Assembly (NCBI GenBank): GCA_035493615.1
Contig: DATJHW010000097.1
Span: 1 to 63,660, forward strand
Reading direction: 5' to 3'
DNA from: Candidatus Saccharimonadales bacterium
GTDB taxonomy: Bacteria; Chloroflexota; Limnocylindria; P2-11E
DNA length: 63,660 nucleotides
In this document: piece after piece, positions 3,218 through 59,175 of the stretch
How positions within the stretch are numbered: the stretch's first letter is position 1
How the letters are laid out: each line of letters begins with the position of its first letter
The notes under the pieces: generated by a model
Database searches by the model: none
What the model was told of the DNA's origin: nothing
The model's input: only the letters and a program-made list of their open reading frames with translations
Made by a program: the position numbers and the translations under genes

Positions 3218-3237
3218 GTTGGAAGTATCGTCGCGCG

Positions 3238-12261: not shown

Positions 12262-12983
12262 TCCTCATCGTCGGCCTCGGCATCGCGGGATTCGCAAAGG
12301 GCACCACCGGAATGGGCCTGCCGCTCCTGGCCACGCCGATCCTGGCCGGCGTGTTCGGCCCGAAGGCGGCCGTGGTCATCGTGACGATCCCGATCTTCGC
12401 CGCGAACTCGATCCTGCTGGTCCAGGGCTGGCACCGGCTCGCACTGCTGCGGACGATCGCGCCGATCATCGTCGCGAGCGTCGTCGGCACAGCGATCGGC
12501 GTGAACCTCCTGGCCCTGCTCGATCAGCGGACCTTCGCGATCCTCATCTCGCTCATGGTCGCGGTGTTCCTGCTCCGCGGAGACCGTCTGATCGGCGACG
12601 ACCCCGGCGCGCGCCGCGCGCGGATCCTCGGGCCGGTCGTCGGACTCGTGAGCGGCGTCCTGCAGGGAACGACGTCGATCGCGAGCCCGCTCATCGGGTC
12701 GTTCTTCCACGCGCGGAAGATGGAGCGCCACGATTACGTGATCGTGCTCGCCGCGATCTTCGAGCTGAACGCCGTGATCCAGCTGGCCGGCTACGCGCTC
12801 CTCGGTCTGTACACGGCGAACATCGTCGCGATCGGGCTGCTCGGCCTCGTGCCGACGCTCCTTGCGCTCATGGCCGGGATCTTCTTCCGCGCGAGGCTCG
12901 ACCAGGCTCGCTTCCGCCAGCTCATCGTGGTGCTGCTCATTCTTTCGGTGGCGAACCTTCTCTGGCGGAGCTTCGGCCCCTAG
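12240..12983 (+). CDS. TauE/SafE family sulfite/anion exporter-like membrane protein
   Basis: 247 aa from ATG 12240. Two-fold repeat of hydrophobic segments with GxGGG-like motifs (FAKGTTGMG, VSGVLQGTTSIAS). Confidence 0.82.
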   Translation: MGTGDLLILIVGLGIAGFAKGTTGMGLPLLATPILAGVFGPKAAVVIVTIPIFAANSILLVQGWHRLALLRTIAPIIVASVVGTAIGVNLLALLDQRTFAILISLMVAVFLLRGDRLIGDDPGARRARILGPVVGLVSGVLQGTTSIASPLIGSFFHARKMERHDYVIVLAAIFELNAVIQLAGYALLGLYTANIVAIGLLGLVPTLLALMAGIFFRARLDQARFRQLIVVLLILSVANLLWRSFGP

Positions 12984-13028
12984 CATCTCGCTCAGCAGGC
13001 AGCCCTGAGCGGACGCGGCGAAGCCGCG

Positions 13029-13721
13029 GTGAGGAAGCGCCGAGTGGAGATCGTTCCGCAAGTCCACGGCGTTCGGGTCATCGGGGCGACGGCGCACCTC
13101 ATCGTCGAGAACGAGATCACCCTGATCGACGCCGGGCATCGCGGCTCGGGTCGCCTCGTGCAGCGCTACCTCGCCCGGATCGGCCGCCCGATGAGCGACC
13201 TCACGCGGATCCTCTGCACCCACGGGCATCCCGACCACATCGGCGGCGTCGCGGAGATCGCGGGCGCGTCGGGCGCGTCGATCCACATCCATCCCGCGGA
13301 CGCGGCGCGCTTGCGCATGGGGATCCGCGAGGTCATCGCGAATCCGGTTCCCGGCCAGGTCATCGCGTTCCTCACCCGTCCGCTCCGCGATCCGCAGCCG
13401 CTCCTGGACGGCGATGTCCTCCCGGTGCTCGGCGGCCTGCACGTCGTGCACACGCCGGGCCACACGCCGGGGAGCGTGTGCTTCTACGCGCCGATCCCGC
13501 GGCTGCTCTTCAGCGGCGACGTGCTGCAGGTCCGGCAAGGCCACCTCGCGCGGCCGCATCACATCTTCAGCGACGACCTGACGGAAGCGCAACGGTCGGT
13601 CGCCCGTCTCGCCGAGCTCGACAGCGAAACGATCTGCTTCGCGCATTTCCCGCCGCTGCGCGCCGGTGCGCGGGAGGCGCTCCGCGGCCTAGCCGCAGAC
13701 TGGGCATCGAGCCCGCGGTGA
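13029..13721 (+). CDS. MBL-fold metallo-hydrolase
   Basis: 230 aa. THGHPDHIGG (HxHxDH) and HTPGHTPG motifs. The stop overlaps the next start (GTGA). Confidence 0.85.
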   Translation: MRKRRVEIVPQVHGVRVIGATAHLIVENEITLIDAGHRGSGRLVQRYLARIGRPMSDLTRILCTHGHPDHIGGVAEIAGASGASIHIHPADAARLRMGIREVIANPVPGQVIAFLTRPLRDPQPLLDGDVLPVLGGLHVVHTPGHTPGSVCFYAPIPRLLFSGDVLQVRQGHLARPHHIFSDDLTEAQRSVARLAELDSETICFAHFPPLRAGAREALRGLAADWASSPR

Positions 13722-21701: not shown

Positions 21702-23593
21702 CCGGCCAGCATCCGCCGCGCGTTCCGTCGCGCGAGGGCCATGACCGTGAGCATCGGATTGACGCCGGAGGCATTCGGGAACGCGCTCGCGTCGGCCACG
21801 TGCAATCCGCGCACGCCACGGACCACGCCGTCGGGATCACTGACGCTGGCCTTCGCGCCGCCCATGCCCGCGGTGCCCATCTGGTGCGCGCTGAACATCC
21901 CGACGGTGTTCGGTGCGACACCGCCGCGCGCGACGGCCGCGGCGAACAGGCCGATGTCGCCACCGGGTCCGATCGCCAGCGGCCGGGTGTGGAACGTGCG
22001 GACCTCGTCCGCGCCGGCAGCCAGGTGGACCTTCGCCGTCTCGACGATCGCGCGCACGCACATCGCGGCGTCGGCACCGCGGACCGCGTACGACACGACG
22101 GCCGCGCCTTCGCGATCGATGCCGACACGGCCGGGCTCGCGGTCGCGCACGATCGGGATGAACGCCGCGTGCTGATCGAGCGCCTGCATGACCGCGCGGT
22201 GATCCGCAGCCGATCGCCACGAGATGCCCGCCGCGGCAACGCCCGGAAGCACCGACGGGACCTCGAGCCGGAAGCCGTACGAGCCGTCGAGATGGGCGAA
22301 CGCGTCCGACACGACGCTCTGTGGCACGCCCGACCACATCCGGACCGGCTCGGAGTACCGGCCGAACACGGCCGGCACCGGGTGGAGGAAGAGACGCCGG
22401 CCGGCCCGCGGGCCGCCGAGCCCGGAGCGCAGGAGGAGCGCGGGCGTGCCGATCGCGCCGCCGGCCAGCACGACCCGGCCGCAGCGCAGCACGATCCGCG
22501 CGCCGCCGGCCTGCGCGACGACGCCGGTGACCGCACCGCCGGCCGTGGTGATGGTCCGCGCGTCGCAGCCCGCGACCACGCGCACGCCGCGCGCGACCGC
22601 GTCGGTCAAATAGGTGCGCGCGCTCGAGCGCTTCGCCCCGGCCCGGCACCCGTAGCCGCAATGCCCACAGTCGCCGCACCCGCGGGCGTTGCGCGGGATC
22701 ACCGACCACGGCAGCCCGAGCGCGTCGAGGCCGCGCGCGAGGGCGTCGTTCGGGGCGTTCCGGATGCTCTCGTCGGTGTTCACGTCGATCCGCTCTTCGA
22801 TCGCGGCGTAGTGGTCGTCGAGCTCGCGGCCCATCCCGTCCACGCCGAGCGCCTCCCACTCGGCGCGCACCTCCTCGGGCAGCCGGAGCGAGGTCATCCA
22901 GTTCACGACGGTGCCGCCGCCGACCACCCGACCGGCGAACAGCACGACGCCGAGATCGTCGGTCGCGGCGAGGCCGCGGTCCCAGAACAGGCGCGCGCTG
23001 CCCTCCGCCTCCCGCGGCACGAGATCGGGCTCGCTCCAGGCCGGTCCTCGCTCGAGCACGATGACGGAGCGGCCGGCCGCGGCGGCTTCGAACGCGGCGA
23101 CCGCGCCGCCCGCGCCGGAGCCCACGACGCACACGTCGCACTCGAGGGTGTCGCCGTCGCGCACCGCCAGCGGGGCGATCGCGAGCGGCCGGTCCGGGAG
23201 TGGCAGCGGATCCGGCCGGGCGTACCCGGTCCCGGGCAGGAGCCCGGCGGCACCGGCCTCGGGCCGCGAGTACGCGATGAACAGCGAGAGACGCTTGACC
23301 GCCTGGAAGGCGGTGCGGAGCAGCCCGAGGCGCGAGTCGGCCCACCGGCGCAGGTACGCCTCGCGCTCGCGCTGGCCGAGGTCACTGAACCGCACCGGCC
23401 GCCGCACGAGCACGAGGTTCGCGACCCGCGAATCGATGAGCCGCAGGAAGAGCCGAAGATCGGTGAGCAGCTTCGGCCGCCCGATGGCCGCGAGCTCCGA
23501 GACAATGGCGTCCGCGATCGCGCCGGGGCTGCCCTCCGGCACGAACGTGCCGCAGACCGTGACGAGCGCCGCCCGCTCGCGCGCGCCGATCAC
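21698..23593 (-). CDS. GMC family oxidoreductase (long-chain fatty alcohol oxidase-like)
   Basis: 631 aa. FAD motif DVCVVGSGAGGAVAA. N-terminal ~150-aa extension typical of alcohol-oxidase-type GMC enzymes. C-terminal HQMGTAGMG..VADASAFP. Confidence 0.85.
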   Translation of the reverse strand: MIGARERAALVTVCGTFVPEGSPGAIADAIVSELAAIGRPKLLTDLRLFLRLIDSRVANLVLVRRPVRFSDLGQREREAYLRRWADSRLGLLRTAFQAVKRLSLFIAYSRPEAGAAGLLPGTGYARPDPLPLPDRPLAIAPLAVRDGDTLECDVCVVGSGAGGAVAAFEAAAAGRSVIVLERGPAWSEPDLVPREAEGSARLFWDRGLAATDDLGVVLFAGRVVGGGTVVNWMTSLRLPEEVRAEWEALGVDGMGRELDDHYAAIEERIDVNTDESIRNAPNDALARGLDALGLPWSVIPRNARGCGDCGHCGYGCRAGAKRSSARTYLTDAVARGVRVVAGCDARTITTAGGAVTGVVAQAGGARIVLRCGRVVLAGGAIGTPALLLRSGLGGPRAGRRLFLHPVPAVFGRYSEPVRMWSGVPQSVVSDAFAHLDGSYGFRLEVPSVLPGVAAAGISWRSAADHRAVMQALDQHAAFIPIVRDREPGRVGIDREGAAVVSYAVRGADAAMCVRAIVETAKVHLAAGADEVRTFHTRPLAIGPGGDIGLFAAAVARGGVAPNTVGMFSAHQMGTAGMGGAKASVSDPDGVVRGVRGLHVADASAFPNASGVNPMLTVMALARRNARRMLAG

Positions 23594-25317
23594 GCCGCGG
23601 GAACGCGCTTCTTCTTGTCCTCCTCGGCCAGCTGCCGCCGAAGCACCTTGCCGATCAGGGTCTTCGGCAGCGAGTCCCGGAACTCGATCGCTTTCGGGAC
23701 CTTGAATGGCGCGAGGTGCTCGCGGCAGAACGTGATGAGCTGGTCGGCGGTCGCGGTCTGGCCGGGCTTGAGGACGACGAACGCCTTCACCTCTTCGCCC
23801 TTGATCGGGTGCGGCACGCCGATCGCCGCGCCCTCGAGCACCGCGGGATGTCTCGCGAGCGTCTCCTCGACCTCGCGCGGGTACACGTTGAAGCCGGAGA
23901 CGATGATCATCTCCTTCTTGCGGTCGACGATCGCGACGTAGCCGTCGGCGTCCATGGTCGCGATGTCGCCGGTGTGCAGCCAGCCATCGCGCAGCGTCGC
24001 GGCCGTCTCCTCGGGCCGGTCGTAGTAGCCGTCCATCAGCTGGGGACCGCGGATGAGGAGCTCCCCTGCCTCGCCGGCCGGGACGTCGTTCTGGCCGGTC
24101 TCGAGATCCACCAGGCGCGTCTGGGTGTCGGGGAAGGTGAGGCCGATCGTGCCGATCCGGTTCTTCGCCGAGTCGAACACGGGATTGCAGTGAGTCACCG
24201 GCGAGGCCTCGGTCAGGCCGTAGCCCTCGACGAGATTCGCGCCGGTGAGCTCACGGAACTTCCGCGCCGTCTCCATGAGCAACGGCGCGGAACCGGAGAT
24301 GCAGGCCGTGATCGAGCGCAGGTCGTACTTCTGGGCCAAGGGCGAATTGTTGATCGCGTTGTAGATCCGGGGCGCGCCGTGGAAGAGCTTCGGCTTGTGG
24401 CGCTGGATGTCCTTCAGCACGTGCTCGAGGTCGAGCTGCGGCTCGAGGATGATCGCGCCGCCCGAGAGCACCGCGAAGTTCATCACGGTGGTGAGGCCGT
24501 ACACGTGGAAGAGCGGCATCACGCCCATGACGGCGTCCTTACCGTCGCGCATGGCCTTGCCGAACCAGGCCGCGCACTGGAGCGTGTTCGCGACGAGCGC
24601 GCGGTGCGAGAGCATCGCGCCTTTTGATGTCCCCGTGGTGCCGCCGGTGTATTGAAGGAGGGCCACGTCATCCGCTGTGACGGGGGCCGCGGACTCGTCC
24701 CCACCGAGCGACAGCACCTCCCGGAGCGCGATCGCCCCGGGGTCGCCGGCGAACGCGACGCGGTGCCCGTCCTTCTTCTCCTTCGCGAACGTGAAGAGCG
24801 TGCGAAGGATGGGCGGCATCTCCTCCTTGATGTTGGTCACGATCACGTTGCGGATCCGCGTGCCTTCGCGCGCGGCCCGGACGACCGGGTAGCCGCGCGA
24901 CAACACCACGATCGTCTCCGCTCCCGAGTCCGCCAGCTGGTAGCGGAGCTCCGGCGGCGTGTACAGCGGGTTGCACGGCACGACGACCGCGCCGATCCGA
25001 AGCGCCCCGAAGAACGCGATGAGGAACTGCGGGCAATTCGGAAGATCGATGGCGACCTTGTCGCCCTGCTTCACGCCGAGCGCGCGCAGCCCGGCCGAGA
25101 ATCGCTTCGCGTCCTTCAGCAGTGACGCGTACGACCGCTTCGCGTTGAAGAAGATCGTCGCCGTCGACGCGGGGTAGAGCTCCGCCGCCTGGTCGAGCAG
25201 GGCATGCAGCGGCACGGCGGGATACTCGAGCGACGCCGGCACGCCCGCGTCGTAGCCCTTCGTGTACTCCGGTGCCCGCGTCGTGGGCTTCGCTGTGACC
25301 GCGATCCGCTGGGCCAT
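23590..25317 (-). CDS. fadD: long-chain-fatty-acid--CoA ligase
   Basis: 575 aa. YTGGTTGTSKGAMLSHR, GYGLTEASP, WLHTGDIA and DRKKEMIIVSGFNVYPRE motifs. Confidence 0.9.
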   Translation of the reverse strand: MAQRIAVTAKPTTRAPEYTKGYDAGVPASLEYPAVPLHALLDQAAELYPASTATIFFNAKRSYASLLKDAKRFSAGLRALGVKQGDKVAIDLPNCPQFLIAFFGALRIGAVVVPCNPLYTPPELRYQLADSGAETIVVLSRGYPVVRAAREGTRIRNVIVTNIKEEMPPILRTLFTFAKEKKDGHRVAFAGDPGAIALREVLSLGGDESAAPVTADDVALLQYTGGTTGTSKGAMLSHRALVANTLQCAAWFGKAMRDGKDAVMGVMPLFHVYGLTTVMNFAVLSGGAIILEPQLDLEHVLKDIQRHKPKLFHGAPRIYNAINNSPLAQKYDLRSITACISGSAPLLMETARKFRELTGANLVEGYGLTEASPVTHCNPVFDSAKNRIGTIGLTFPDTQTRLVDLETGQNDVPAGEAGELLIRGPQLMDGYYDRPEETAATLRDGWLHTGDIATMDADGYVAIVDRKKEMIIVSGFNVYPREVEETLARHPAVLEGAAIGVPHPIKGEEVKAFVVLKPGQTATADQLITFCREHLAPFKVPKAIEFRDSLPKTLIGKVLRRQLAEEDKKKRVPAA

Positions 25318-25332
25318 CTTCCCTACCTCCGC

Positions 25333-26481
25333 TCAGGCCTTGAGCAGCTCCTCCGCGATGATCATGCGCTGGACCTCGCTGGTCCCTTCATAGATCCGGA
25401 GGATCCGGGCGTCCCGATAGGCACGCTCCACGGGCGACTCCTTCATGTAGCCCATCCCGCCGTGGATTTGGAGCACCCGGTCGACGACGCGTCCGGCCAT
25501 CTCCGAGGCGAACACCTTCACCATCGCCGCCTCGGTGGAGGCGCGGATGCCCCGGTCCAGCTTGGCCGCAGCGTCGTACACCATCAGCCGTGCGGCGTGG
25601 ATCTCCACCGCGGAGTCCGCGAGCATCCACTGGATCGCCTGGTTCACGGCGATCGGCTTCCCGAACTGCACGCGCCGCTTGCTGTGCGCGATCGCCATCT
25701 CGAGCAGGTGCTGGCTCGAGCCGACCGCGCCCGCGGCGAGCGACACGCGACCGATGTCGAGAGCGCCGAGGGCGGTGCGGAATCCGCTCCCGACCGTCCC
25801 GCCGAGCACGTTCTCCTCCGGCACCTCGCAGTCCTCGAAGATGAGCTCGCCGGTGTAGCTGCCGCGAAGTCCCATCTTGTCGTCGACCTTGCCGACGCGG
25901 AATCCGGCGAAGCCCTTCTCGACGACGAACGCGGTGATCCCGCCCCGCGGCCCGAGCTTCCGGTCGTTCGCCGCGTACACGACCACGACGTCGGCGATCG
26001 GTCCGTTGGTGACCCAGATCTTCGTCCCGTTGAGGATCCAGCGGTCGCCACGCTTCGTCGCGCTCGTCTGGATCGACGCGGCGTCCGATCCGCTCGACGG
26101 CTCCGTCAGCGAGAAGGCCGCGATCTTCCGCCCGGCCGTCAGGTCAGGCAGGTACTTGCGCTTCTGCTCTTCGGTCCCGCCCAGATAGATGGACATCGAA
26201 CCGATCGACGTGTGCGCTCCGATGAGGTTGGAGAACGCCGCCGAGGTCCGCCCGAACTGCTCGAGCGCGACGCAATAGCCGAGGTCCCCCGCGCCCACGC
26301 CGCCGTACTCCTCCGGGAACGGGAGCCCGAAGAAGCCGAGCGCGCCCATCTCCTTGAGGATGGCCTCCGGGATCTTGTCGTCCGCTTCGACCTGCTGCTC
26401 GATCGGCTGCAGCCGGCCTTCGACGAACTCGCGCGCCGTGCGGGCCAGCAGCTGGAGCTCGTCCGGGATATCGAAGTCCAC
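25333..26481 (-). CDS. acyl-CoA dehydrogenase
   Basis: 382 aa. AFSLTEPSSGSDA, WVTNG, QIHGGMGY and IYEGTSEVQ motifs. Confidence 0.9.
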   Translation of the reverse strand: MDFDIPDELQLLARTAREFVEGRLQPIEQQVEADDKIPEAILKEMGALGFFGLPFPEEYGGVGAGDLGYCVALEQFGRTSAAFSNLIGAHTSIGSMSIYLGGTEEQKRKYLPDLTAGRKIAAFSLTEPSSGSDAASIQTSATKRGDRWILNGTKIWVTNGPIADVVVVYAANDRKLGPRGGITAFVVEKGFAGFRVGKVDDKMGLRGSYTGELIFEDCEVPEENVLGGTVGSGFRTALGALDIGRVSLAAGAVGSSQHLLEMAIAHSKRRVQFGKPIAVNQAIQWMLADSAVEIHAARLMVYDAAAKLDRGIRASTEAAMVKVFASEMAGRVVDRVLQIHGGMGYMKESPVERAYRDARILRIYEGTSEVQRMIIAEELLKA

Positions 26482-26491
26482 GGTCGCGAGC

Positions 26492-27181
26492 CTAGACCTC
26501 GGCGGTATGGATGGCCGCGATGCCCGCCGTCAATCGCTCGAAGGTCACGCGGAATCCCGCCTCACGGAGCATGGCCGCGAGCCGCTCGGGCTCCGGGAAC
26601 GGCCGCAGGGAACGCGGCAGGTAGCGATATGCCTCGCGGTCGCCGCCGAGGAGCAGCGCGATCGCGGGCGCGATGTGCTCGAAGTAGAAGGCGTAGAGCC
26701 AGGCGAACGCCGCGCCCGGCGGATGCGAAAGCTCGAGCACGACCGCCCGGCCACCGGGCCGGAGTACCCGCCGGAACTCGGCGAAGGCGCGTCCGAGGTC
26801 GCCGACGTTCCGGACGGTGAAGCCGGTCACGATCCGGTCGACGCTCGCGTCGGGCAGCGGCAGCGATTCGGCGGTCCCGACCAGCGCCCTGATCCGCTCG
26901 CGCTGCGCGCCGGTGGACCGGCGCGCGAGGACGGCGAGCATCCCGGGGGAGAGATCGAGCGCGACGACCTCCGCGCCCCGCGCGGCGGCGGCGAATGAGA
27001 GGTCGCCGGTGCCGGCGCCGACGTCGAGCACGGTCATGCCGGGCCCGATCCTTGCTCGCGCGATCGCCTGGCGGCGCCAGGACAGGTCGGTCCCGAACGA
27101 GAGCACGCGGTTGAGGAGGTCGTAGCGCGCGGCGATGCGGTCGAACATCGTCGCGATCTCGCGGTCGTGCCCGTCGGTCAT
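26492..27181 (-). CDS. ubiE: demethylmenaquinone/ubiquinone C-methyltransferase (UbiE/MenG family)
   Basis: 229 aa. FDRIAARYDLLNRVLSFG, VLDVGAGTGD, FTVRNV and YLPRS motifs. Confidence 0.85.
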   Translation of the reverse strand: MTDGHDREIATMFDRIAARYDLLNRVLSFGTDLSWRRQAIARARIGPGMTVLDVGAGTGDLSFAAAARGAEVVALDLSPGMLAVLARRSTGAQRERIRALVGTAESLPLPDASVDRIVTGFTVRNVGDLGRAFAEFRRVLRPGGRAVVLELSHPPGAAFAWLYAFYFEHIAPAIALLLGGDREAYRYLPRSLRPFPEPERLAAMLREAGFRVTFERLTAGIAAIHTAEV

Positions 27182-27201
27182 CTGCCGCGAACGCTAACCT
27201 C

Positions 27202-27927
27202 TTGACCATCAGCACTGCACTCTTCATCTACGCGCATCCCGACGACGAATCGTTCGTCTCCGGCACGCCCATGAAGCTCGCCGACGCCGGACACACGATC
27301 GCGCTGCTCACGCTCACCCGCGGAGATGCGGGGTTGTGGCTGGGCAAGGCCTTCGGCATGTGGTCGAAGGCGGAGCTCGGCACGGAGCGCGCGAAGGAGT
27401 GGGCGGCGGCCGTCGCGACGATCGGCTTCGGCTGGTCGCGCCTGCTGCGGTACCCCGATGGCGGGCTCAGGGACGCGCCGGCCGACGTCCTCACGGCCGA
27501 CATCGTCGCGGCGATCCGCGAGGTGCGGCCGGAGATCGTCTGCACGTTCGGGCCGGAAGGCGCCGGCAGCGAGCACGACGACCACCGCTCGACCTCGTTC
27601 TTCGCGGCGCGCGCGTTCGCGCGCGCGGCCATCCCCGATCAGTATCCGGAGCGCGGGGAGCCGCACCTCGCGCGGCGGCTCTTCTTCAGCGCGACGCCGT
27701 ACACCGCCGACGCGCCCGCCGCATTCGGCGCGACGACCCCGACTCACAGCATCGACGTCAGCGCGTACGAGCAGCGCAAGGCCGCGGCGTTCGAGTGCCA
27801 CAAGACGCAGCACAAGGACCGCGACTTCTTCTACGACCTCCTGAAGCGGCGCGCCGGCAAGGAGTACTTCCACCTCGCGATCGACCGGACCGGTGCGATG
27901 CCGAAGTCCGACGATCTGCTGGGCTAG
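27202..27927 (+). CDS. PIG-L/LmbE family N-acetylglucosaminyl deacetylase
   Basis: 241 aa with a TTG start. IYAHPDDESF and HDDHR zinc-binding motifs. Confidence 0.85.
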   Translation: MTISTALFIYAHPDDESFVSGTPMKLADAGHTIALLTLTRGDAGLWLGKAFGMWSKAELGTERAKEWAAAVATIGFGWSRLLRYPDGGLRDAPADVLTADIVAAIREVRPEIVCTFGPEGAGSEHDDHRSTSFFAARAFARAAIPDQYPERGEPHLARRLFFSATPYTADAPAAFGATTPTHSIDVSAYEQRKAAAFECHKTQHKDRDFFYDLLKRRAGKEYFHLAIDRTGAMPKSDDLLG

Positions 27928-50342: not shown

Positions 50343-50828
50343 GGCTCGCCGCCGCTCCGCATACATCTGCTGGATGAAGTGCGGCGCCCACTGGAGGTAC
50401 CGTCGCTGCGTGTCCGGTGCGAGTGAGAAGAACTCACCGAGGACCTGGTGTGGACCGCGCGCCGGATCGCACAGACAGTCCATCACCCACACGCCGGTGC
50501 CGTCGTCGTACGCATTCAGCCGGTAGTCGATCGTGATCTCCTCGCCAGGTGCGATGTCACGCACCGCGATGACCGCGTCCCGCTCGGTGCCGAGCGCGTT
50601 CGGGTCGCACGCATGGTTGAGATAACAGCGTGGCTCCGGTAGCACGCGCCACAGTCCGATCCCGAACTCCGAGAGATGCTCGCGCTCCCAGACCGTGAGC
50701 TGCGCGAGCCCGCCGCGGTCAATGACCGGGCCATCGAACGCCGAGAGGATCGTCTCACCGGCCGCGAAGCGCCGGAGGGCGAAGACGCCCCTGCCCTTGC
50801 CCGCAGCGTCCCGAACGGCGACGTCTAC
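50337..50828 (-). CDS. SET-domain protein (putative lysine methyltransferase); start codon unresolved
   Basis: In-frame part of ORF 50337..51089. VAVRDAAGKGRGVFALRRFAAGETI, YLNHACDPN, EEITIDY and post-SET CLCD motifs. There is no ATG/GTG/TTG between GTG 51089 (265-nt out-of-frame overlap with cofE) and GTG 50645 (which truncates the domain). The upper bound given is the codon overlapping the cofE stop. Confidence 0.72.
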   Translation of the reverse strand, partial: VDVAVRDAAGKGRGVFALRRFAAGETILSAFDGPVIDRGGLAQLTVWEREHLSEFGIGLWRVLPEPRCYLNHACDPNALGTERDAVIAVRDIAPGEEITIDYRLNAYDDGTGVWVMDCLCDPARGPHQVLGEFFSLAPDTQRRYLQWAPHFIQQMYAERRRAK

Positions 50829-51580
50829 CGGAACATGTCCTTGTCGCGCGGGCGCACGTACGTGCGCGCGGTCTCGCTGCCTTCGGGCATCGGAAGCCCG
50901 CGCACGATCGCGGCGGGCCGTCGATCGAGCTTCCCCATCACGAGCTCCGTCGCGGCGGCGATCTCGTCGGCGATCGCGATCTCGGTGACGCGCATCTCGT
51001 AGCCGTCGGGGTCGAACTCGCCGATGTACCGGCGAAGCGCGGGGAGGCCACTGATCCCGATGGCCACGTTCATGTGACCCTCGCGCCACGCCCGGCCGAA
51101 GGTGTCGGTGATCACGACCGGCACGTCGATCCCGCTCTGCTTCCGGATCGCCGCGCGGATCCGCGCGGCCGACGCGTCGGGATCGACCGGGAGCAGGATG
51201 AGCGTGTCCGGCGCGCCGGCATTCGAGTGGTCGACCCCCGCGTTCGCAGCGACGAAGCCGTGCTTCGTCTCGACGATGAGCACGCCGCGCTGCCAGCGGA
51301 CGATGCGCACGGTCTCGTCCAGCACGGCCTGCAGGCCGCGCGCGTCCTTGCCGGACTCCGCGGCCATCCGCTCCGCGTCGGGCCCCGGCACGACGTCGGC
51401 GAGCTTGCGGATACGGCCCTCGGACTTGGAGACGACCTTCTGCGCGATCGCGAGCACGTCGCCGTCCTCGAAGGCGCGGCCGGCCGCGCGCAGGCAGTCG
51501 ATGAGCATCGCGGCCAGTTCGTCGCCCGGCTTGATCTCGGGAAGGCCGTCGATCGGGATGAGGGTGACGTCGGACACCAC
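50825..51580 (-). CDS. cofE: coenzyme F420-0:L-glutamate ligase
   Basis: ORF 50825..51652 trimmed to GTG 51580 (251 aa). DGDVLAIAQKVVSKSEGR, VETKHGFVAANAGVD, ITDTFGRAWREG and C-terminal RPRDKDMFR. Confidence 0.88.
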   Translation of the reverse strand: MVSDVTLIPIDGLPEIKPGDELAAMLIDCLRAAGRAFEDGDVLAIAQKVVSKSEGRIRKLADVVPGPDAERMAAESGKDARGLQAVLDETVRIVRWQRGVLIVETKHGFVAANAGVDHSNAGAPDTLILLPVDPDASAARIRAAIRKQSGIDVPVVITDTFGRAWREGHMNVAIGISGLPALRRYIGEFDPDGYEMRVTEIAIADEIAAATELVMGKLDRRPAAIVRGLPMPEGSETARTYVRPRDKDMFR

Positions 51581-51624
51581 TGAAAGTCTCGCTGATAGCG
51601 TGGGCAGGTGCAGAGGTACGCGAT

Positions 51625-52023
51625 GTGAAGGAGGACCTGCTCGCCAGCGCACGGCTCGGCCATCTCGCGACGACGAGCGCGACCGGCCGCCCGCACGTCG
51701 TCCCGGTGTGCTTCGCCTGGCTGCCGCCCCTCGTCTACTCGGCCATCGACGGCAAGCCCAAGCGGACGACGCTCCTGCGGCGGATCCGGAACATCGCCGA
51801 GACCGGCCGCGCGGCGCTCGTCGTCGATCGGTGGAGCGAGGATTGGACGAAGCTCGCGTACGTGCTCGTCGAAGGCCGAGCCGAGGTGCTCGAGGACGGA
51901 CGGGAGCGCGACGAGGCGCTCATCCTGCTCACCGCGAAATATCCGCAGTACGACGACCTGCCGCTCGAAGGGAACCTCGTCATCAAGCTCGTCGCCGAAC
52001 ATGTTGTTGAATGGCACGCCTGA
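51625..52023 (+). CDS. PPOX-class (pyridoxamine 5'-phosphate oxidase fold) F420-dependent oxidoreductase
   Basis: 132 aa. GHLATTSATGRPHVVPVCF...VVDRWSEDWTKLAYVLVEGRAEV pattern. Divergent from cofE. Confidence 0.8.
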   Translation: MKEDLLASARLGHLATTSATGRPHVVPVCFAWLPPLVYSAIDGKPKRTTLLRRIRNIAETGRAALVVDRWSEDWTKLAYVLVEGRAEVLEDGRERDEALILLTAKYPQYDDLPLEGNLVIKLVAEHVVEWHA

Positions 52024-53033
52024 TGGAGTTCGGCTTCACGCTCAAGCCCGACCACTCGCTCGAGCGGATCGCCTCGCTCACCAAGCTCGCCGAGCAATGC
52101 GGCTTCACCTACGGCTGGGTCTTCGACAGCCACGTGCTCTGGAAGGAGCCCTACGTCCTCCTGACGCTGATGGCCCAGAACAGCACGAAGCTGCGCCTCG
52201 GCACCTGTGTCACGAACCCGGCGACACGCGAGCCGTCGGTGACCGCGAGCGCGCTCGCGGTCCTGCAGATCCTCTCCAAGGGCCGGATGGATCTGGGCAT
52301 CGGTCGCGGCGATTCCGCGCGCCGTGTGCTGGGCAAGAAGCCGACGACGCTCGAGGATCTCGAGGCGGCGACGCTCGCGATCCGCGAGCTGTGCGAAGGC
52401 CGCGCGACCACGTACGACGGGACCGAGATCAAGCTCGACTGGGCCGAGCGCTACAAGCTGCCGGTGTGGATCGCCGGCTACGGGCCCAAGGCGCTCGCGA
52501 TGACCGGTCGGATCGCGGACGGCGCCGTCATCCAGATCGCGGACCCCAGCCTTGTGAAGTGGTGCGTCGGTCTCCTGCGTGACGGGACGCGCATCGCGCA
52601 TCGGGACGCGTCCGACGTGAAGGTCATGGTCGCGGCGCCGGCGCACGTCGGGCCGAAGGCCGCCGTCCGCGAGCGCGTGCGCTGGTTCCCCGCCCTCGTG
52701 AGCAACCACGTCGTCGACCTGGTGCGCCGCTACGGCGAGCAAGGCCTGCCGGCGGACCTCACGAGCTACGTGCGCGGCCGGCCGGGGTACGACTACAAGC
52801 ATCACGCGGAGTCGGGCTCGTCGAACGCCGGGTTCGTCGACGACGAGTCCGTCGACCGCTTCTGCGTGACCGGTGAGGTGAGCGAGCAGGTCGAGAAGCT
52901 CCACACGCTCGCAGACGCGGGGATGACCCAGTTCAACCTCTACCTCATGAGCGGCGACGAGGAGCGGCAGCTCGAGGCGTACGGCCGGGACGTGATCCCG
53001 AAGCTCCGTGGATCGGTGTCCGCGCCGGCCTAG
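52011..53033 (+). CDS. LLM-class (luciferase-like) F420-dependent oxidoreductase (Mer-like)
   Basis: 340 aa. FGFTLKP, FTYGWVFDSH, GTCVTNP, GIGRGDS and IAGYGPKAL motifs. Confidence 0.85.
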   Translation: MARLMEFGFTLKPDHSLERIASLTKLAEQCGFTYGWVFDSHVLWKEPYVLLTLMAQNSTKLRLGTCVTNPATREPSVTASALAVLQILSKGRMDLGIGRGDSARRVLGKKPTTLEDLEAATLAIRELCEGRATTYDGTEIKLDWAERYKLPVWIAGYGPKALAMTGRIADGAVIQIADPSLVKWCVGLLRDGTRIAHRDASDVKVMVAAPAHVGPKAAVRERVRWFPALVSNHVVDLVRRYGEQGLPADLTSYVRGRPGYDYKHHAESGSSNAGFVDDESVDRFCVTGEVSEQVEKLHTLADAGMTQFNLYLMSGDEERQLEAYGRDVIPKLRGSVSAPA

Positions 53034-53605
53034 GCGCCGAATCCAGCGACCCAGCGCTGCGCGTCGGCGAACCCGTACTTCGCGTCAGCCTCGGCGCCGA
53101 GCGCGTCCAGCGTCTTGCTGAAGAACGAACGGGCCGATGCGGCGAGCACGATGTCGACGATCTCGTCGTCCGTGAAGCCGTGTCCGCGCAGCCCATCGAT
53201 GTCCTCGGACGTGACCTTGTAGGCATGGAGCACGACCTTCTCGACGAGGTCGAGCATCGCGACCTCCCGTGCGTCGAGGCCGGCGGTGCGGTGATCGTTC
53301 GTGATCGCCGCGATCTGCTCGGCCGTGAAGAACTTGGACCGGAGCAGGACCGCTCCGTGGGCGAGCGTTCAGTAGCGGCAGCGCAGCTTCGCGGCGGCGA
53401 CCGTCGTGATGAGCTCGTAGCGCCGCTGGTCCTGGTGCTCGCGGATCGCGGCGATGAGCTGGCGGAACGCGACGATCGCCTTCGGCCGGAGGCTGAGGGC
53501 CTGGGTGTGGCTCGGGAGCTCGCCATTCGCGAGCACGTCGGCGTCGTAGATCTCTTTCAGCAGCCCAGTGGCCTCGCCCGATGAGACCGTCCGGATGTAG
53601 GCCAC
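53030..53605 (-). CDS. AhpD/carboxymuconolactone-decarboxylase-family peroxidase-related protein with in-frame TGA (candidate selenocysteine, CxxU)
   Basis: Track ORFs 53369..53605 and 53030..53257 share one frame and are separated only by TGA 53371..53369. Read-through gives 191 aa with ...TVAAAKLRCRY[TGA]TLAHGAVLL..., matching the C-x-x-C-x-x-x-H active-site pattern. The alternative is a pseudogene. Confidence 0.6.
53341..53356 (-). other. candidate bacterial SECIS hairpin core
   Basis: mRNA GGAGC-GGUCCU-GCUCC starts 12 nt after the UGA and is extendable to CC(A)CGGAGC...GCUCCGG with one bulged A. The apical loop contains GGUC at about the same distance from UGA as I recall for E. coli fdhF. 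Confidence 0.4.
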
Positions 53606-53634
53606 GCAGCACCTCCTCTGATCGCGCGGTGAGG

Positions 53635-54657
53635 CTAGCGGAGGACGAAGCCCTCACGCAGCGGATCGTCGGGCGCGACCCACAGCTCCGACCGGCCGAC
53701 GGTCCACGCGGATCCGGTGACCTCAGGCACGACCGCGTCGTGCCGCGCGACCGTGGCCGTCCGGGCCACCCGCCCGCGGAACACCGTACCGATGATGCTC
53801 TCGACCCGGAAGGTCGCGCCGTCGCGGAGCCGCCCGCGTGCGCGCTCGATCGCGACGCGCGCGCTCACCCCGGTGCCGGTCGGGGACCGGTCGAGCTCGC
53901 CTTCGGCGAAGACGCAGACGTTCCGCGAATCGGCACCCGGCCCGTGCGGCTTGCCGGTGAGGATCGTGCCGTACAAGAAGGAGAGATCCGCGGCGTCCGG
54001 TGAGTCGGGGTGCGTGATCTCGCGACTCGCCATGACCGCCCGTTTGATCCGCATTCCGACGTCGATGCACTGACGGAAGCCGCTCGGGTCGAGCGGCAGG
54101 CCGAGGGCGTCAGCGTCGACGAACGCGTAGAACGCACCGCCGAACGCGAGGTCGTAGCGCACCGTTCCGAGACCCGCCACCTCGACGGCGGCGTCGAGGT
54201 CGACCGCGAAGGACGGCACGTTCTCGAACGAAACCTCGCGGACCCGCACGCCGTCGCGCGTCGCGCGCGCGGTGACCCGGCCCGGCGGCGCGTCGTAGCG
54301 GATGACGTCGCCCTTCCGTTCGCCGGTCTCGAGGAGCGCCGTGGTCAGCGCGATGATCCCGTGGCCGCACATCGTGCTCCAGCCTTCGTTGTGGACGAAC
54401 AGGACGCCGAGGTCGCCGTCGTGCGTCACCGGCTCGGTCAGGATCGCCCCGTACATGTCGGCGTGGCCATGCGGCTCGAACACGATCGTCCTGCGCAGGC
54501 CGTCGAGGTGCTCGCGCGCGTAGCGGCGCTTGTCGAGCATCGTCCGACCGGGGATCGGATCGATGCCGCCGGTCACGATGCGCAACGGCTCGCCGGCGGC
54601 GTGGGACTCGAGGGTCGTGACGCGCGGCCAGGTCTTCGGCGGTGTCCAGTTCCGCAT
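53635..54657 (-). CDS. proline racemase family protein, Cys/Thr type (trans-3-hydroxy-L-proline dehydratase-like)
   Basis: 340 aa. First catalytic site WSTMCGHG (Cys). Second site DRSPTGTG has Thr instead of Cys, the signature separating dehydratases from racemases/epimerases. Confidence 0.82.
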   Translation of the reverse strand: MRNWTPPKTWPRVTTLESHAAGEPLRIVTGGIDPIPGRTMLDKRRYAREHLDGLRRTIVFEPHGHADMYGAILTEPVTHDGDLGVLFVHNEGWSTMCGHGIIALTTALLETGERKGDVIRYDAPPGRVTARATRDGVRVREVSFENVPSFAVDLDAAVEVAGLGTVRYDLAFGGAFYAFVDADALGLPLDPSGFRQCIDVGMRIKRAVMASREITHPDSPDAADLSFLYGTILTGKPHGPGADSRNVCVFAEGELDRSPTGTGVSARVAIERARGRLRDGATFRVESIIGTVFRGRVARTATVARHDAVVPEVTGSAWTVGRSELWVAPDDPLREGFVLR

Positions 54658-54675: not shown

Positions 54676-55914
54676 CTATGCCCGCTCCGGGCGAGCCCCA
54701 TCCAACGGGTGAACGGCGCCATCCTTCATCACGAACGCGACCGAGCCGCGGTCCTTGAACAGCGCGATGTTCGCGAGCGGATCGCCCCGCACGCCGACGA
54801 GATCCGCGCGCTTGCCCGGCTCGACGGTGCCGACGAGCTTGTCGACGCGCGAGCACTCGGCCGCTGTCTTCGTGGTGGCGACGATGGCCTGCATCGGCGT
54901 CATGCCGTTCTCGACCATGACCGCGATCTCCTCCGCGTTGCTCCCGTGCGGCCCAACGCCGGTGTCGGTGCCCATCGCGATGCGCACGCCGTGCTCGACG
55001 GCCATCCGGAACGACCGGGTGTGGGCTTCGGCAACCTCCTTGGCCTTTCGGATGGCGTACGGCGGCATCGATGAGGGATCCTTCTCGGCACGGCGGACCA
55101 CCCAGAGCGGCGCGACCAGGGTCGCGACCAGATACGTGCCACGCTTCTTCATCTCCGCGCAGATCTCCTCGGAGAGATAGATGCCGTGCTCGATTGACTC
55201 GACGCCGGCGAGGACCGCGTTCTTGATGCCCTGCATCGCCTGCGCGTGCGACATCACGGTCTTGCCCGCGGCGTGGGCCTCGTACACGACCGCGGCGATC
55301 TCGTCCGGCGAGAAGCCGGTGGCGCCCGGCTCGTCGTTCGGCGACAGGACGCCGCCGGAGGTCATGATCTTGATCTGGTCGGCGCCGGCCCGAAGGACCT
55401 CACGGGTCACCCGCCGGATGTTGTCGATCCCGTCCACCACGCCGATCGGCCGCTCCGGATCCATCACGGCCACGTTCACCCCCGACGGCATCAGGGAGTC
55501 GCCGTGCCCGCCGGTCTGCGAGAGCGGCGTCACCGCGATGCGCATGCGCGGACCGGGGAACAGGCCGCGCTCGACGGCCATCTTCACACCGCGCGTGGTG
55601 AACCCGGCGTCGCGGACGGTCGTGAAGCCGGCATCGAGCGTCTCTCGCGCGTGGACCAGGGCCATCGCCGTGTTCAGGCTCGGCGGCATGAGCAGACGCT
55701 GCTCGATGCTCTCCTGCCCAGGCACGAGATGGACATGGCAGTCGATCAAGCCGGGCAGCATCGTGAGCTCGCCGGTGTCGATGACCTCAGCGCCCTTCGG
55801 CGCGTCCTTCACGATGCTCTGGATGACCCCGTCCTCGATGACGACGAACCGCCCGCGGACCGGATCGGCCCCCGTGCCATCGATGAGCGTGCTCGCGCGG
55901 ACGGCGACGGTCAC
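54676..55914 (-). CDS. amidohydrolase family metallo-hydrolase (Xaa-Pro dipeptidase/imidazolonepropionase-like)
   Basis: 412 aa. PGLIDCHVHL (HxH), SHAQ and GTDTG motifs. Confidence 0.85.
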   Translation of the reverse strand: MTVAVRASTLIDGTGADPVRGRFVVIEDGVIQSIVKDAPKGAEVIDTGELTMLPGLIDCHVHLVPGQESIEQRLLMPPSLNTAMALVHARETLDAGFTTVRDAGFTTRGVKMAVERGLFPGPRMRIAVTPLSQTGGHGDSLMPSGVNVAVMDPERPIGVVDGIDNIRRVTREVLRAGADQIKIMTSGGVLSPNDEPGATGFSPDEIAAVVYEAHAAGKTVMSHAQAMQGIKNAVLAGVESIEHGIYLSEEICAEMKKRGTYLVATLVAPLWVVRRAEKDPSSMPPYAIRKAKEVAEAHTRSFRMAVEHGVRIAMGTDTGVGPHGSNAEEIAVMVENGMTPMQAIVATTKTAAECSRVDKLVGTVEPGKRADLVGVRGDPLANIALFKDRGSVAFVMKDGAVHPLDGARPERA

Positions 55915-56864
55915 GCGATCGCCTCCTCGAGCTGGGGACGCACCTCGGTCGCGATCCGCTCGATCGTCTCGTGGTCGAACGGCGCCATGAAGTACAGGAT
56001 GAATCCCCGGGCGCCGGCCCGCCAGAGCGCGGCGCAGCGCTCGACCAGCGCGTCGACGGTGTGGATCGGGTTCATCTTCAGCGGCTCGGGGCGCTTGGAC
56101 CGCGCGCGCACGCGCTCCAGCTGCGCCGTGACATCGCTCACCTTCGAGCGAAGGACGACATCGGGTCTCACGCTCGTCAGGGGCTTGATCTCACGTAAGT
56201 CGCGGCCGACGTCGGCGCAGTGAGCCGCAAGGACCTCGAGCTTGTGCGCGATGACCTCCGGAGTGCCATGGCCGTGCCACAAGTCCGCGTATCTGGCGAC
56301 CGTGCGGAGCGTCTTCCGCTCGCCACCGCCGCCGATGAGCAGTGGGAGCCGCTCCTGCACCGGCTTCGGCTCGGCGACCGCGTCCGTCAGCGTGTAGTGC
56401 TTGCCGGAGAAGCTCGCGGTCGGCTCGTCGAGCAGCAGACGCAGCACACGCGCGGCCTCGTCCATCCGGGCGAGCCGGCCGGCGGTCGAGGGGAAGCGCA
56501 GGCCGTACATCGCGTGCTCGCCCTCGTGCCAGGCGGCGCCGAGCCCGAGGATCGCGCGGCCGTTCGTGATGTGGTCCAACGTCGCGACCATCTTCGCCAA
56601 GACCGGTGGATGGCGGTACGTGTTCCCGGTGACGAGGGTGCCGAGACGGACGCGCGTCGTGAGGGCGCCCCACGCCGCAAGCAGCTCCCAGGCCTCGAAC
56701 ATCGGACCGTTCGGATCGCCGTCGAGCGGGACGAAGTGATCCCACGTCCAGACGGAATCGAACCCGAGCCGGTCGACGAGCGCGACCGTCTCGCGCAGCT
56801 CCGTCCAGGTCGTGTGCTGGGCCGGGAGGTTGATGCCCCAGTGCGGTCGCGGGGTCGCGACTAT
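55911..56864 (-). CDS. LLM-class F420-dependent oxidoreductase; start codon unresolved
   Basis: Track ORF 55911..56702 starts at the first ATG. The same frame stays open up to TGA 56894..56892 and encodes HWGINLPAQHTTWTELRETVALVDRLGFDSVWTWDHFVPL, which aligns with the N-terminus of the paralog at 58237. The only start-like codon there is ATA 56864, giving an ATAG overlap with the aminotransferase stop. Confidence 0.78.
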   Translation of the reverse strand: MVATPRPHWGINLPAQHTTWTELRETVALVDRLGFDSVWTWDHFVPLDGDPNGPMFEAWELLAAWGALTTRVRLGTLVTGNTYRHPPVLAKMVATLDHITNGRAILGLGAAWHEGEHAMYGLRFPSTAGRLARMDEAARVLRLLLDEPTASFSGKHYTLTDAVAEPKPVQERLPLLIGGGGERKTLRTVARYADLWHGHGTPEVIAHKLEVLAAHCADVGRDLREIKPLTSVRPDVVLRSKVSDVTAQLERVRARSKRPEPLKMNPIHTVDALVERCAALWRAGARGFILYFMAPFDHETIERIATEVRPQLEEAIA

Positions 56865-58204
56865 CCGAGCTTTCCCGTCGCCGCGTAGCGGTCAGCGACC
56901 GCGAGCGCCTCGTCGATCGCGTTGATCCCGATGCGCAGCTCCTCATCGGTGATGATCAGCGGCGGCGCGACGAAGAGCATGTTCCAGCGGCAGAACACGT
57001 AGACGTCGCGCTTCATGAGCTCGCCCTTGAGCGCGTTCGCGAGCGCGCTCGACGGGCCGTTCCACTGCTCGAGCATCTCCTTCGTGCCACGATCCTTCAC
57101 GAGCTCGACGCCCCAGAACAATCCGCGACCGCGAACATCGCCGATCGACGGATGCTTCGTCGCGAGCGTCCGTAGCTCGCGGCCGAGGCGCTCGCCCATC
57201 CGGGCGGAGTTCCCGATCAGGTCGTCGGCCTCGTACGCATCGAGCGTCGCGACGCCGGCGGCGCACGCGAGGGCGTGGCCGCTGTACGTGAGGCCGCCCC
57301 AGTAGACGTTGTCGTCGAAGTGCTTGGCGATCTTTTCGTTGACCATCGCGCCACCGAGTGGCACGTACCCGGAGTTCACACCCTTCGCGAAGGTCATGAT
57401 GTCGGGCACCGTCTGCCAGTGCTCCGAGGCGAACCACTTGCCCGTGCGCCCGAAACCGGTCATGACCTCGTCGAACACGAGCACGATCCCGTACGTGTCG
57501 CAGAGCGTCCGGAGGCCCTGGAGGAAGCCATCGGGTGGGACGAGCAGGCCCGAGGTGCCGACGATCGGCTCGAGCAGGATCGCGGCGATGTACTGCGGGC
57601 CCTCGTACCAGATGACCTCTTCGACGTGCGCGAGCGCCTTCTGCGCGTCGTCGCCGAAGACCGAGCGGTACGGATCCGGATTGAGGAAGTGCACGATCCC
57701 GGTGATGCCCGGCTCGTTGGCCCAGCGGCGGTTGTCACCGCCGAGGCTCATCGCGCCCTGGGTCTGGCCGTGGAAGCTCCGCCATTGGGTGAGGATCTTG
57801 TGGCGGCCCGTGTACAGGCGCGCGAGCTTGATCGCGTTCTCGTTCGCCTCGGTGCCACCGGTCGTGAAGAGGGTCTTGGTGAGGTCGCCCGGTGCCACAT
57901 CGGCGAGCTTGCGGGCGAGCGTCGCCTGGGCCTCGGTCGTGAACGCAGGGGTGACGTAGTTGAGCGTCGCGGCCTGCTCCTGGATCGCGCGCACGACGCG
58001 CGGATGGCCGTGACCGAGGTTGGAGTTCACGAGCTCGGAGGAGAAATCGAGGATCCGGCGGTCGCCGGAGTAGAGCCAGACGCCTTCGGCACCGGTGATG
58101 ACGAGCGGCGAAATATTCCCCTGTGCGGACCAGTTCACGAGAACGTGCTTCTTCGTGTCCGCCAGGACTTTCGCGACGTCGGTGCGATCCCGCGTGAGCG
58201 CCAT
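56861..58204 (-). CDS. class III (omega-type) aminotransferase
   Basis: ORF 56861..58234. ATG 58204 is preferred; GTG 58234 is 2 nt from the divergent gene. GGTEANE, FDEVMTGFGRTGKWF and TFAKG (PLP Lys) motifs. Confidence 0.88.
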   Translation of the reverse strand: MALTRDRTDVAKVLADTKKHVLVNWSAQGNISPLVITGAEGVWLYSGDRRILDFSSELVNSNLGHGHPRVVRAIQEQAATLNYVTPAFTTEAQATLARKLADVAPGDLTKTLFTTGGTEANENAIKLARLYTGRHKILTQWRSFHGQTQGAMSLGGDNRRWANEPGITGIVHFLNPDPYRSVFGDDAQKALAHVEEVIWYEGPQYIAAILLEPIVGTSGLLVPPDGFLQGLRTLCDTYGIVLVFDEVMTGFGRTGKWFASEHWQTVPDIMTFAKGVNSGYVPLGGAMVNEKIAKHFDDNVYWGGLTYSGHALACAAGVATLDAYEADDLIGNSARMGERLGRELRTLATKHPSIGDVRGRGLFWGVELVKDRGTKEMLEQWNGPSSALANALKGELMKRDVYVFCRWNMLFVAPPLIITDEELRIGINAIDEALAVADRYAATGKLG

Positions 58205-58236
58205 CGGCGCTCGGACTATACGCTCGGAGGCCACCC

Positions 58237-59175
58237 ATGACGTTCTTCGGCCTGCAGCTTCACCCGCAGTACACCACCTGGGACGAGATGCGCGATGCCG
58301 CGCTCCTCGCCGAGGAGAGCGGGTGGGACGTCCTCATGACGTGGGATCACTTCGTGCCGCTCATGGGCGACGTCACCGGGCCGAACCTCGAGGGCTGGCA
58401 GGTGCTCGCCGCGTTCGGCGCGATCACGAAGACCCCGAAGATCGGGATGCTCGTCACCGGCAACACGTACCGGCACCCCGCCGTGCTCGCGAACATGGCC
58501 TCCACGCTCGACAACATCACGAACGGCCGCGCGGTCCTTGGGATCGGCGCCGCATGGAACGAGCACGAGCACCGGATGTACGGGATCCACTTCGACACGC
58601 CCGCGATCCGGCTGGCGAAGCTGCGCGAGGCGACCCGGATCATCCGCGGCCTGCTCGACAAGGGGACGGTCACCTACGAGGGCAACTACTACCAGCTGGA
58701 GAACGCGACGCTCGGCACCCGGCCGATCCAGAAGCGCGTGCCGATCCTCATCGGCGGCGGCGGCGAGCGGGTCACGCTGAAGATCACCGCGCGGTACGCG
58801 GACTGGTGGCACGGGTTCGGGACCCCCGAGATCATCAAGCACAAGCTCGAGGTCCTGAAGCAGCACTGCGCCGATGTCGGACGTGACTTCAGCGAGATCG
58901 ACCCAACGGGCGGTGGGGGCATCCTGGTCCGCGACGACCTCAACACGGTCGACAAGCGGATGCGGGAGGTGGCCGCGCGGAACAAGGTCGAGGCGCCGAA
59001 CCGGCCGGCGGTGCTCGGGAAGCCCGACGACATCGTGAAGCGGCTCCTCGAATACCACAAGGTCGGGGTCAAGGGCTTCCTGTTCGGGATGTCACCGCCG
59101 TACGACCGCGAGACCATCGAACGGACGATGACCGAGGTGAAGCCGCGCTTCCTGGAGCTCGCCGGAGCGCGCTAG
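58237..59175 (+). CDS. LLM-class F420-dependent oxidoreductase
   Basis: 312 aa. FGLQLHPQ, TWDHFVPL, VTGNTYRHPAVLA, GIGAAWNEHEH and GGGGERVTL motifs. Paralog of 55911..56864. Confidence 0.88.
   Translation: MTFFGLQLHPQYTTWDEMRDAALLAEESGWDVLMTWDHFVPLMGDVTGPNLEGWQVLAAFGAITKTPKIGMLVTGNTYRHPAVLANMASTLDNITNGRAVLGIGAAWNEHEHRMYGIHFDTPAIRLAKLREATRIIRGLLDKGTVTYEGNYYQLENATLGTRPIQKRVPILIGGGGERVTLKITARYADWWHGFGTPEIIKHKLEVLKQHCADVGRDFSEIDPTGGGGILVRDDLNTVDKRMREVAARNKVEAPNRPAVLGKPDDIVKRLLEYHKVGVKGFLFGMSPPYDRETIERTMTEVKPRFLELAGAR

Follow-up and report, generated by a model that had tools for sequence, protein, structure and literature searches.

Does a lone TGA in the middle of a redox gene end that gene, or is it read as selenocysteine (Sec)? 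The question is raised by a minus-strand locus on contig DATJHW010000097.1 (assembly GCA_035493615.1), a stretch of 63,660 nucleotides that we analysed as a whole and refer to as the 63-kb window. At 53605..53030, two open reading frames (ORFs) with the features of an AhpD-like protein of the carboxymuconolactone decarboxylase (CMD) fold are divided by a single TGA, and an earlier reading of the DNA (the original prediction) had proposed that this codon specifies the Sec of a CxxU motif, U standing for Sec. Based on reading frame, alignments, codon usage and comparative RNA data, we consider it highly probable that 53605..53030 is a functional AhpD-like gene whose UGA codon 79 is decoded as Sec.

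One gene, divided at its catalytic position

The ORFs 53369..53605 (78 aa) and 53030..53257 (75 aa) lie in a common frame on the minus strand, in which the TGA at 53371..53369 is the sole internal stop between a GTG at 53605..53603 and a TAG at 53032..53030. Reading through it gives a protein of 78 + 1 + 112 = 191 residues. The G+C content of third codon positions (GC3) is 0.89-0.90 upstream as well as downstream of the TGA, so that both halves look coding, and the N-terminus, MAYIRTV, agrees with the starts of homologues in the alignment.

To place the protein in a family, profile searches were run with the TGA residue replaced by Cys. The Pfam CMD model PF02627 scores 37.3 bits (cutoff 23), and a search of 5.8 billion proteins returned 3,911 homologues, the best full-length ones at about 60% identity and 194-198 aa. 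Around the TGA the peptide reads KLRCRY-TGA-TLAHG. Aligned with 20 full-length homologues, the query alone differs at the TGA column, where every other sequence has Cys; the position of the first motif Cys varies between Cys and Ser. His83, four residues after the TGA (+4), and Glu64, fifteen residues before it (-15) in the sequence RRYEL, are invariant. The alignment profile also matches the AhpD-like structures 6k40 (Deinococcus radiodurans AhpD), 2oyo, 2prr, 3c1l and 2pfx over residues 7-177 (E 6e-25 to 7e-20), with the CxxC motif aligned and the TGA on the second Cys. These structures and Mycobacterium tuberculosis AhpD have Cys where the window gene has the predicted Sec. The spacing Glu(-15)/Cys/Cys/His(+4) is presumably that of Glu118/Cys130/Cys133/His137 in M. 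tuberculosis AhpD, in which the second Cys is the nucleophile. By analogy with that enzyme, His83 and Glu64 would have catalytic roles.

The original prediction was thus right about the gene itself: two ORFs in one frame with a lone TGA between them, a readthrough product of 191 aa, and a TGA at the second redox Cys of a C-x-x-C-x-x-x-H pattern. It had also expected automatic annotation to split the gene, and this is what public gene calls on four metagenome contigs do, recording a 78-aa and a 75-aa ORF. The output of automated callers is what speaks for two separate genes, one coding for a 78-aa protein that ends at the TGA and the other for a 75-aa protein that starts at the ATG at 53257. 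However, the 37 codons from the TGA to this ATG (TLAHGAVLLRSKFF...) are in frame and among the most conserved of the family, they hold the invariant catalytic His83, and no homologue occurs as two stand-alone proteins. We therefore regard two separate genes as a most improbable arrangement.

The TGA in independent assemblies and distant relatives

An exact look-up of the 78-aa fragment found the four contigs, which come from independent metagenomes (soil and others) and carry the same split gene. Over the gene, a synonymous CGC/CGT change is the single difference between their DNA and that of the window, and all four have the TGA, which excludes a sequencing error. A genome-wide reassignment of TGA can be judged from the window itself. 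Many of its Pfam-complete genes end in TGA, for example an acyl-CoA dehydrogenase at 25333..26529 and a response regulator ending at 47255, as the original prediction had stated in calling TGA an otherwise ordinary stop. Just one other in-frame TGA is flanked by coding signal on either side, at 25333..25335 on the minus strand, and we rejected it as a second candidate: it is the stop of the complete acyl-CoA dehydrogenase 25336..26529, and a complete AMP-binding enzyme (23590..25317) starts with an ATG five codons past it. As TGA is a normal stop and the sole other junction separates complete genes, code reassignment is excluded. The bare in-frame stop is all that speaks for an assembly error or a reassigned code; with the identical codon in four assemblies, this use of TGA and a window GC content of 70.6%, such explanations are effectively refuted already and the least credible of those considered.

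To find more distant relatives of the TGA form, a degenerate DNA pattern for R-Y-E-L-x4-A-A-x6-Y-TGA-x3-H was scanned against the metagenome collection of the Joint Genome Institute (JGI). The pattern carries about 40 bits, for which one or two matches would be expected by chance, a rough estimate rather than a value computed by the tool. The scan returned at least 119 metagenome loci, every listed one a homologue with the in-frame TGA. In nearly all listed loci whose contig extends far enough, a conserved C-terminal half of about 106-133 residues continues in frame to a homologous end; a few are extended further at the C-terminus, and in two (L025 and L103) the frame is locally disrupted. The listed loci span 40-77% GC and are 40-69% identical to the window protein. 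Among representative genomes the only close match is L001:2301, in an Armatimonadota metagenome-assembled genome (JAIBHM010000127.1). It has the TGA form at 58% identity and the canonical hairpin described below, is unannotated, and has a shorter C-terminus (99 aa past the Sec). Relatives thus share the TGA codon rather than decaying around it, which bears out a further point of the original prediction.

The strength of protein-level selection was compared on the two sides of the codon using the closest TGA relatives among the matches listed, L074 (69% identity), L124 (66%) and L077. The ratio of nonsynonymous to synonymous substitution rates (dN/dS) between these and the window gene is 0.23-0.39 before the TGA and 0.18-0.39 after it. 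With equal ratios on either side, the downstream half has been kept as a protein as strongly as the upstream half, and this comparison rules out both a dead gene and a pair of independent small ORFs. A pseudogene could have arisen by a TGC to TGA nonsense mutation, or when the lineage, possibly very recently and in one strain, lost its Sec machinery. A single base change would suffice, gene callers do split the gene, and the 63-kb window shows no Sec machinery. Against such decay stand a TGA shared by relatives of 66-69% identity and by at least 119 divergent loci, an intact downstream frame with a dN/dS of 0.18-0.39 and a GC3 of 0.90, and a hairpin under selection at the nucleotide level. We rate a dead gene as very unlikely.

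A hairpin within the catalytic codons

Bacterial Sec codons are followed by a selenocysteine insertion sequence (SECIS), and the original prediction had drawn such a hairpin just 3' of the TGA. It exists as the minimum free energy (MFE) structure of a 29-nt local fold, CGGAGCG-GUCC-UGCUCCG at 53357..53340 (-11.5 kcal/mol), including the optional extension with a bulged A, and the stem spans +12 (+10 with the bulge) to +29/+30 after the UGA. The loop had been placed within 1 nt of the spacing in fdhF; the GGUC loop of the Escherichia coli K-12 fdhF sequence starts at +19 after the UGA and the window loop GGUCCU at +18, in agreement with that estimate. Both hairpins lie within the ORF immediately 3' of the UGA and have a G-rich apical loop (GGUC...). 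Unlike the fdhF element, the window hairpin has a stem of 6-7 bp only and no long lower helix, and nothing in it clearly corresponds to the bulged U of fdhF.

Across the family, 86 distinct TGA-form sequences were examined for the hairpin codons and 76 were included in alignment A3. The peptide His-Gly-Ala-Val-Leu-Arg (six or seven codons) is almost always written CAC GGR GCG GUG CUC CGU, so the common hairpin reads ACGGAGC-GGU-GCUCCGU. RNAalifold, run on the 76 sequences, independently predicted the same stem, whose cells are paired in 92.9% of cases versus 29-42% in control registers with the 3' arm shifted by 1-3 nt. One pair changes from CG to UA in three sequences and another alternates between A-U and G-U in 28. 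Two divergent loci, L060 (Ga0111539_10000055) and L085 (Ga0075423_10014885), have the motif S-S-Y-U (SxxU) followed by His-Ser-Ser-Val-Leu-Leu-Asp after the Sec position; their RNA, CAGCAG-CGUG-CUGCUG, differs in sequence and still folds into a hairpin equally far from the UGA. Most members of the family have a loop of only 3 nt (GGU). In the window gene, L074 and L124, one extra Leu codon gives a 6-nt loop in place of the 3-nt one, on an intact stem.

Synonymous sites within the hairpin are frozen. Codons 83-89 of 94 distinct Sec-forms have a relative codon entropy of 0.34, and 97 further conserved positions one of 0.77 (Mann-Whitney p=4e-7). Gly84 is GGA or GGG in 92/92 cases, Leu88 is CUC in 89/94 and Arg89 is CGU in 57/79, while GGC, CUG and CGC, respectively, dominate elsewhere in the same genes. 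Likewise, His83 is CAC in 83/94 Sec-forms, and of the 92 with Ala at codon 85, 74 have G as the third base of that codon, which is the first base of the loop. This synonymous constraint is the strongest evidence for the hairpin. Together with the pairing frequencies it answers the question of conservation raised in the original prediction in favour of the hairpin. In Cys-form homologues the stem is broken in 15 of 16 distinct sequences and the codons vary freely; since some of the 15 encode the identical AHGAVLR, the peptide does not force the structure. The sixteenth, a Cys-form (TGC) at L139:1001-1588 (GCA_040960975.1, JBFONB010005783.1), has the Sec-type codons CAC GGG GCG GTG CTC CGT, which suggests a fossil SECIS in a gene recently converted from Sec to Cys.

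The hairpin can also be read differently, as a stimulator of near-cognate UGA suppression by Trp, Cys or Arg in which SelB has no part. Downstream structures in general can stimulate stop-codon readthrough, and Sec insertion is here deduced from sequence, both of which favour this possibility. It would, however, have to explain why the UGA sits exactly at the redox-active Cys, the documented Sec site of the AhpD-like family (PMC1088965), and why position and G-rich loop of the hairpin fit the bacterial SECIS model and the fdhF spacing. Trp or Arg in the place of the nucleophile would moreover inactivate the enzyme. We hold readthrough with another amino acid to be as improbable as a dead gene, and decoding as Sec is the reading followed below.

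Evidence weighed against selenocysteine

Several observations weigh against Sec decoding, beginning with the RNA. The local hairpin has a z-score of -1.3, unremarkable in a sequence of 70% GC, and a 71-nt MFE fold around the TGA takes other pairings (z -0.67). As the single-sequence folding energy is not significant, we do not count it as evidence, and the significance of the hairpin comes only from the comparative data. In these, true compensatory covariation is sparse and the support consists mostly of conservation. A synonymous shuffle of the 42 nt after the TGA gave a weak signal in 92 Sec-forms (mean z -1.17; p<=0.05 in 23%), and Cys-forms behaved similarly. MFE is too blunt in GC-rich ORFs, and for this reason register-specific pair counts and per-codon synonymous entropy were used. 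Furthermore, the window hairpin has A.G as its closing pair where the family has A-U. Rfam gave no match at gathering score in the window and none at E<=10 in 53200..53450; evidently, no Rfam model fits such short bacterial SECIS hairpins located inside an ORF.

A further point concerns family membership. The window protein scores 73.8 bits with the NCBIfam model TIGR01926 ('peroxidase-related enzyme'), 8 bits short of the cutoff of 81.8, and is for this reason filed as a divergent relative and not as a strict member. Its nearest relatives, L074 and L124, are below the cutoff as well (72.2 and 81.2 bits), and more distant TGA relatives pass it with 90.5-93.2 bits. TGA relatives at 90-93 bits and a sub-clade around the window gene at 72-81 bits argue for a divergent member of a known family: judged from its sequence, the window gene is a new, slightly divergent member of the AhpD-like CxxU family and no new kind of selenoprotein. 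Two other models were tried and rejected. NF041238 (AhpD_rel_CFYUT) gives 28.9 bits (cutoff 175), with about 90 of its 357 positions aligned, and NF053654 (YciW-related (seleno)protein) gives 21.5 bits (cutoff 310). Both describe (seleno)proteins of the AhpD superfamily with a C-x-Y-U-T type motif and match the window protein weakly and locally.

Finally, a Pfam scan of about 57 stop-to-stop coding segments of the 63-kb window found no SelA, SelB or SelD domain, and ARAGORN found 0 tRNAs in it, hence no tRNA-Sec. With only 63 kb at hand, missing sel genes and tRNA-Sec are uninformative rather than negative. As a separate observation, ARAGORN detected no tRNA in the window and 55 related loci taken together (about 400 kb), fewer than expected by chance.

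A proposed mechanism

The product would be a 191-residue AhpD-like thiol/selenol oxidoreductase. During its translation, SelB-tRNASec would be recruited by the short hairpin, which begins 10-11 nt past the UGA, is written in the codons of the conserved His-Gly-Ala-Val-Leu(-Leu)-Arg and presents its G-rich apical loop from +18. By extension from the AhpD family, Sec79, in the place of the nucleophilic second Cys, may attack a peroxide or an oxidised partner. Cys76 would then resolve the intermediate as an intramolecular selenenylsulfide, with His83 and Glu64 acting as a proton relay, and a cellular thiol system would re-reduce the enzyme. The partner of M. tuberculosis AhpD is AhpC/lipoamide, whereas no ahpC adjoins the window gene.

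Relation to known selenoproteins

The AhpD-like (COG2128) CxxU family was described in 2005 from the Sargasso Sea metagenome, with 27 sequences and SECIS figures (Zhang, Fomenko & Gladyshev; PMC1088965). In the Global Ocean Sampling (GOS) data it was the fourth most abundant selenoprotein family, with 299 sequences versus 902 Cys homologues (PMC2398784). AhpD-like selenoproteins were also found in sequenced genomes (PMC1794560), and a 2026 review has the entry 'AhpD-like protein, TIGR01926, CxxU' (PMC13188914). Since 2005 it has thus ranked with the most abundant selenoprotein families of metagenomes. The window gene resembles it in fold, in a CxxU motif with the predicted Sec at the second Cys, in a length of about 190 aa, in a SECIS directly 3' of the UGA whose apical loop contains G, and in having widespread Cys homologues. 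It differs, together with L074 and L124, in a score of 72-81 bits, the motif C-R-Y-U and the one-codon Leu insertion; unlike the marine-plankton members, it comes from a soil-associated source of 70% GC that is rich in genes related to coenzyme F420.

These differences lead to a more tentative set of ideas. The window gene may belong with L074 and L124 to a distinct sub-clade of AhpD-like selenoproteins, one marked by C-R-Y-U, a doubled SECIS loop and a TIGR01926 score below the cutoff and found in soil bacteria, probably Actinobacteria, that have a high GC content and many F420 genes. The function of this sub-clade may be tied to the adjacent proline-racemase, amidohydrolase and luciferase-like genes. 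In addition, the resolving Cys seems to be obligate in Sec-forms (98%) and to have been lost from over half of the Cys-forms. Among the matches listed, position -3 is Cys in 103/105 distinct Sec-forms (CxxU), while the 118 closest Cys-forms have 52 Cys (CxxC), 61 Ser (SxxC), 2 Gly and 1 Ala there, counts that are uncorrected for phylogeny. If true, the pattern implies an obligatory selenenylsulfide cycle in the Sec enzymes versus a one-Cys mechanism in the Cys enzymes. That a distinct sub-clade, a neighbour-tied function and an obligate resolving Cys in the Sec-forms all hold jointly is doubtful.

The main value of the locus lies in correcting annotation: the gene is split in public records, and relatives are apparently recorded as 'CxxW' by some pipelines. 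Hundreds of similar genes from soil and sediment are probably mis-annotated in the same way. Two database homologues, P0019 and P0031, have a C-x-x-W active site, and P0019 is nearly identical to the TGA-form locus L015; both are probably selenoprotein genes whose TGA was translated as Trp by a pipeline using an alternative genetic code. The locus also marks a soil bacterium of 70% GC, rich in F420 genes, as a likely user of selenium whose peroxide/thiol redox defence would include a selenoenzyme. The GC content of 70.6%, FbiB/CofE and several luciferase-like oxidoreductases, the prmC-sua5-glyA linkage and the occurrence in soil metagenomes jointly hint at an uncultured member of an Actinomycetota-like soil lineage. 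It offers a clean case of a SECIS hairpin placed inside the codons of a conserved catalytic peptide, with measurable constraint on synonymous sites.

Genomic neighbourhood

The features of the locus and its surroundings are collected in Table 1. The proline-racemase-family gene ends 29 nt before the start of the predicted selenoprotein gene. This adjacency is repeated in contigs L012-L014, and the two genes are probably co-transcribed; an amidohydrolase gene precedes the proline-racemase-family gene. On the other side, the 3' end of the convergent luciferase-like gene overlaps the selenoprotein stop by 4 nt, an arrangement repeated in L012 and L013, and its product is probably F420-dependent.

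Table 1. Predicted selenoprotein gene, hairpin and neighbouring genes (window coordinates)
Feature	Position	Strand	Remarks
Complete AhpD-like (CMD-fold) predicted selenoprotein gene	53030..53605	-	191 codons including Sec79; GTG start, TAG stop
Shine-Dalgarno-like GGAGG	53612..53616	-	6 nt 5' of the GTG; read from the sequence
In-frame TGA, predicted Sec79 codon	53369..53371	-	Second, nucleophilic position of the CxxC/CxxU motif
Cys76 codon TGC, predicted resolving Cys of C-R-Y-U	53378..53380	-	Frame and alignment
His83 codon CAC	53357..53359	-	Invariant, Sec +4; doubles as 5' base of the SECIS stem
Glu64 codon GAG in invariant RRYEL	53414..53416	-	Invariant, Sec -15
SECIS-like hairpin within the ORF, codons His83-Arg89	53339..53359	-	Local MFE, RNAalifold and comparative data
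Core stem CGGAGC/GCUCCG	53357..53352 and 53345..53340	-	Local fold
Apical loop GGUCCU	53351..53346	-	Local fold
Optional C-G pair with bulged A, extending the hairpin	53359/53339	-	As drawn in the original prediction
Proline-racemase-family gene	53635..54657	-	PF05544, 339 bits
Luciferase-like oxidoreductase, convergent	52011..53033	+	PF00296, 175 bits
F420-0:gamma-glutamyl ligase (FbiB/CofE)	50828..51919		Pfam scan
Two further luciferase-like oxidoreductases	55914..56891 and 58198..59175		

Between 50828 and 59175, F420-related genes are interleaved with genes of the proline-racemase, amidohydrolase and class-III aminotransferase families, and the predicted selenoprotein gene may thus lie within a small catabolic island. 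Elsewhere in the window, a plus-strand ORF of about 1,373 aa (12107..16228) has AMP-binding, phosphopantetheine-binding and acyltransferase domains, and about 600 N-terminal residues of its stop-to-stop frame are without a Pfam match. Several of the Cys-form loci L134, L135, L136 and L137 show a conserved arrangement of PIG-L deacetylase, CMD, prfA and prmC genes; the PIG-L (27115..27927) and prmC (2387..3352) genes of the window lie distant from the selenoprotein gene. A prmC-sua5-glyA cluster is also present in the window.

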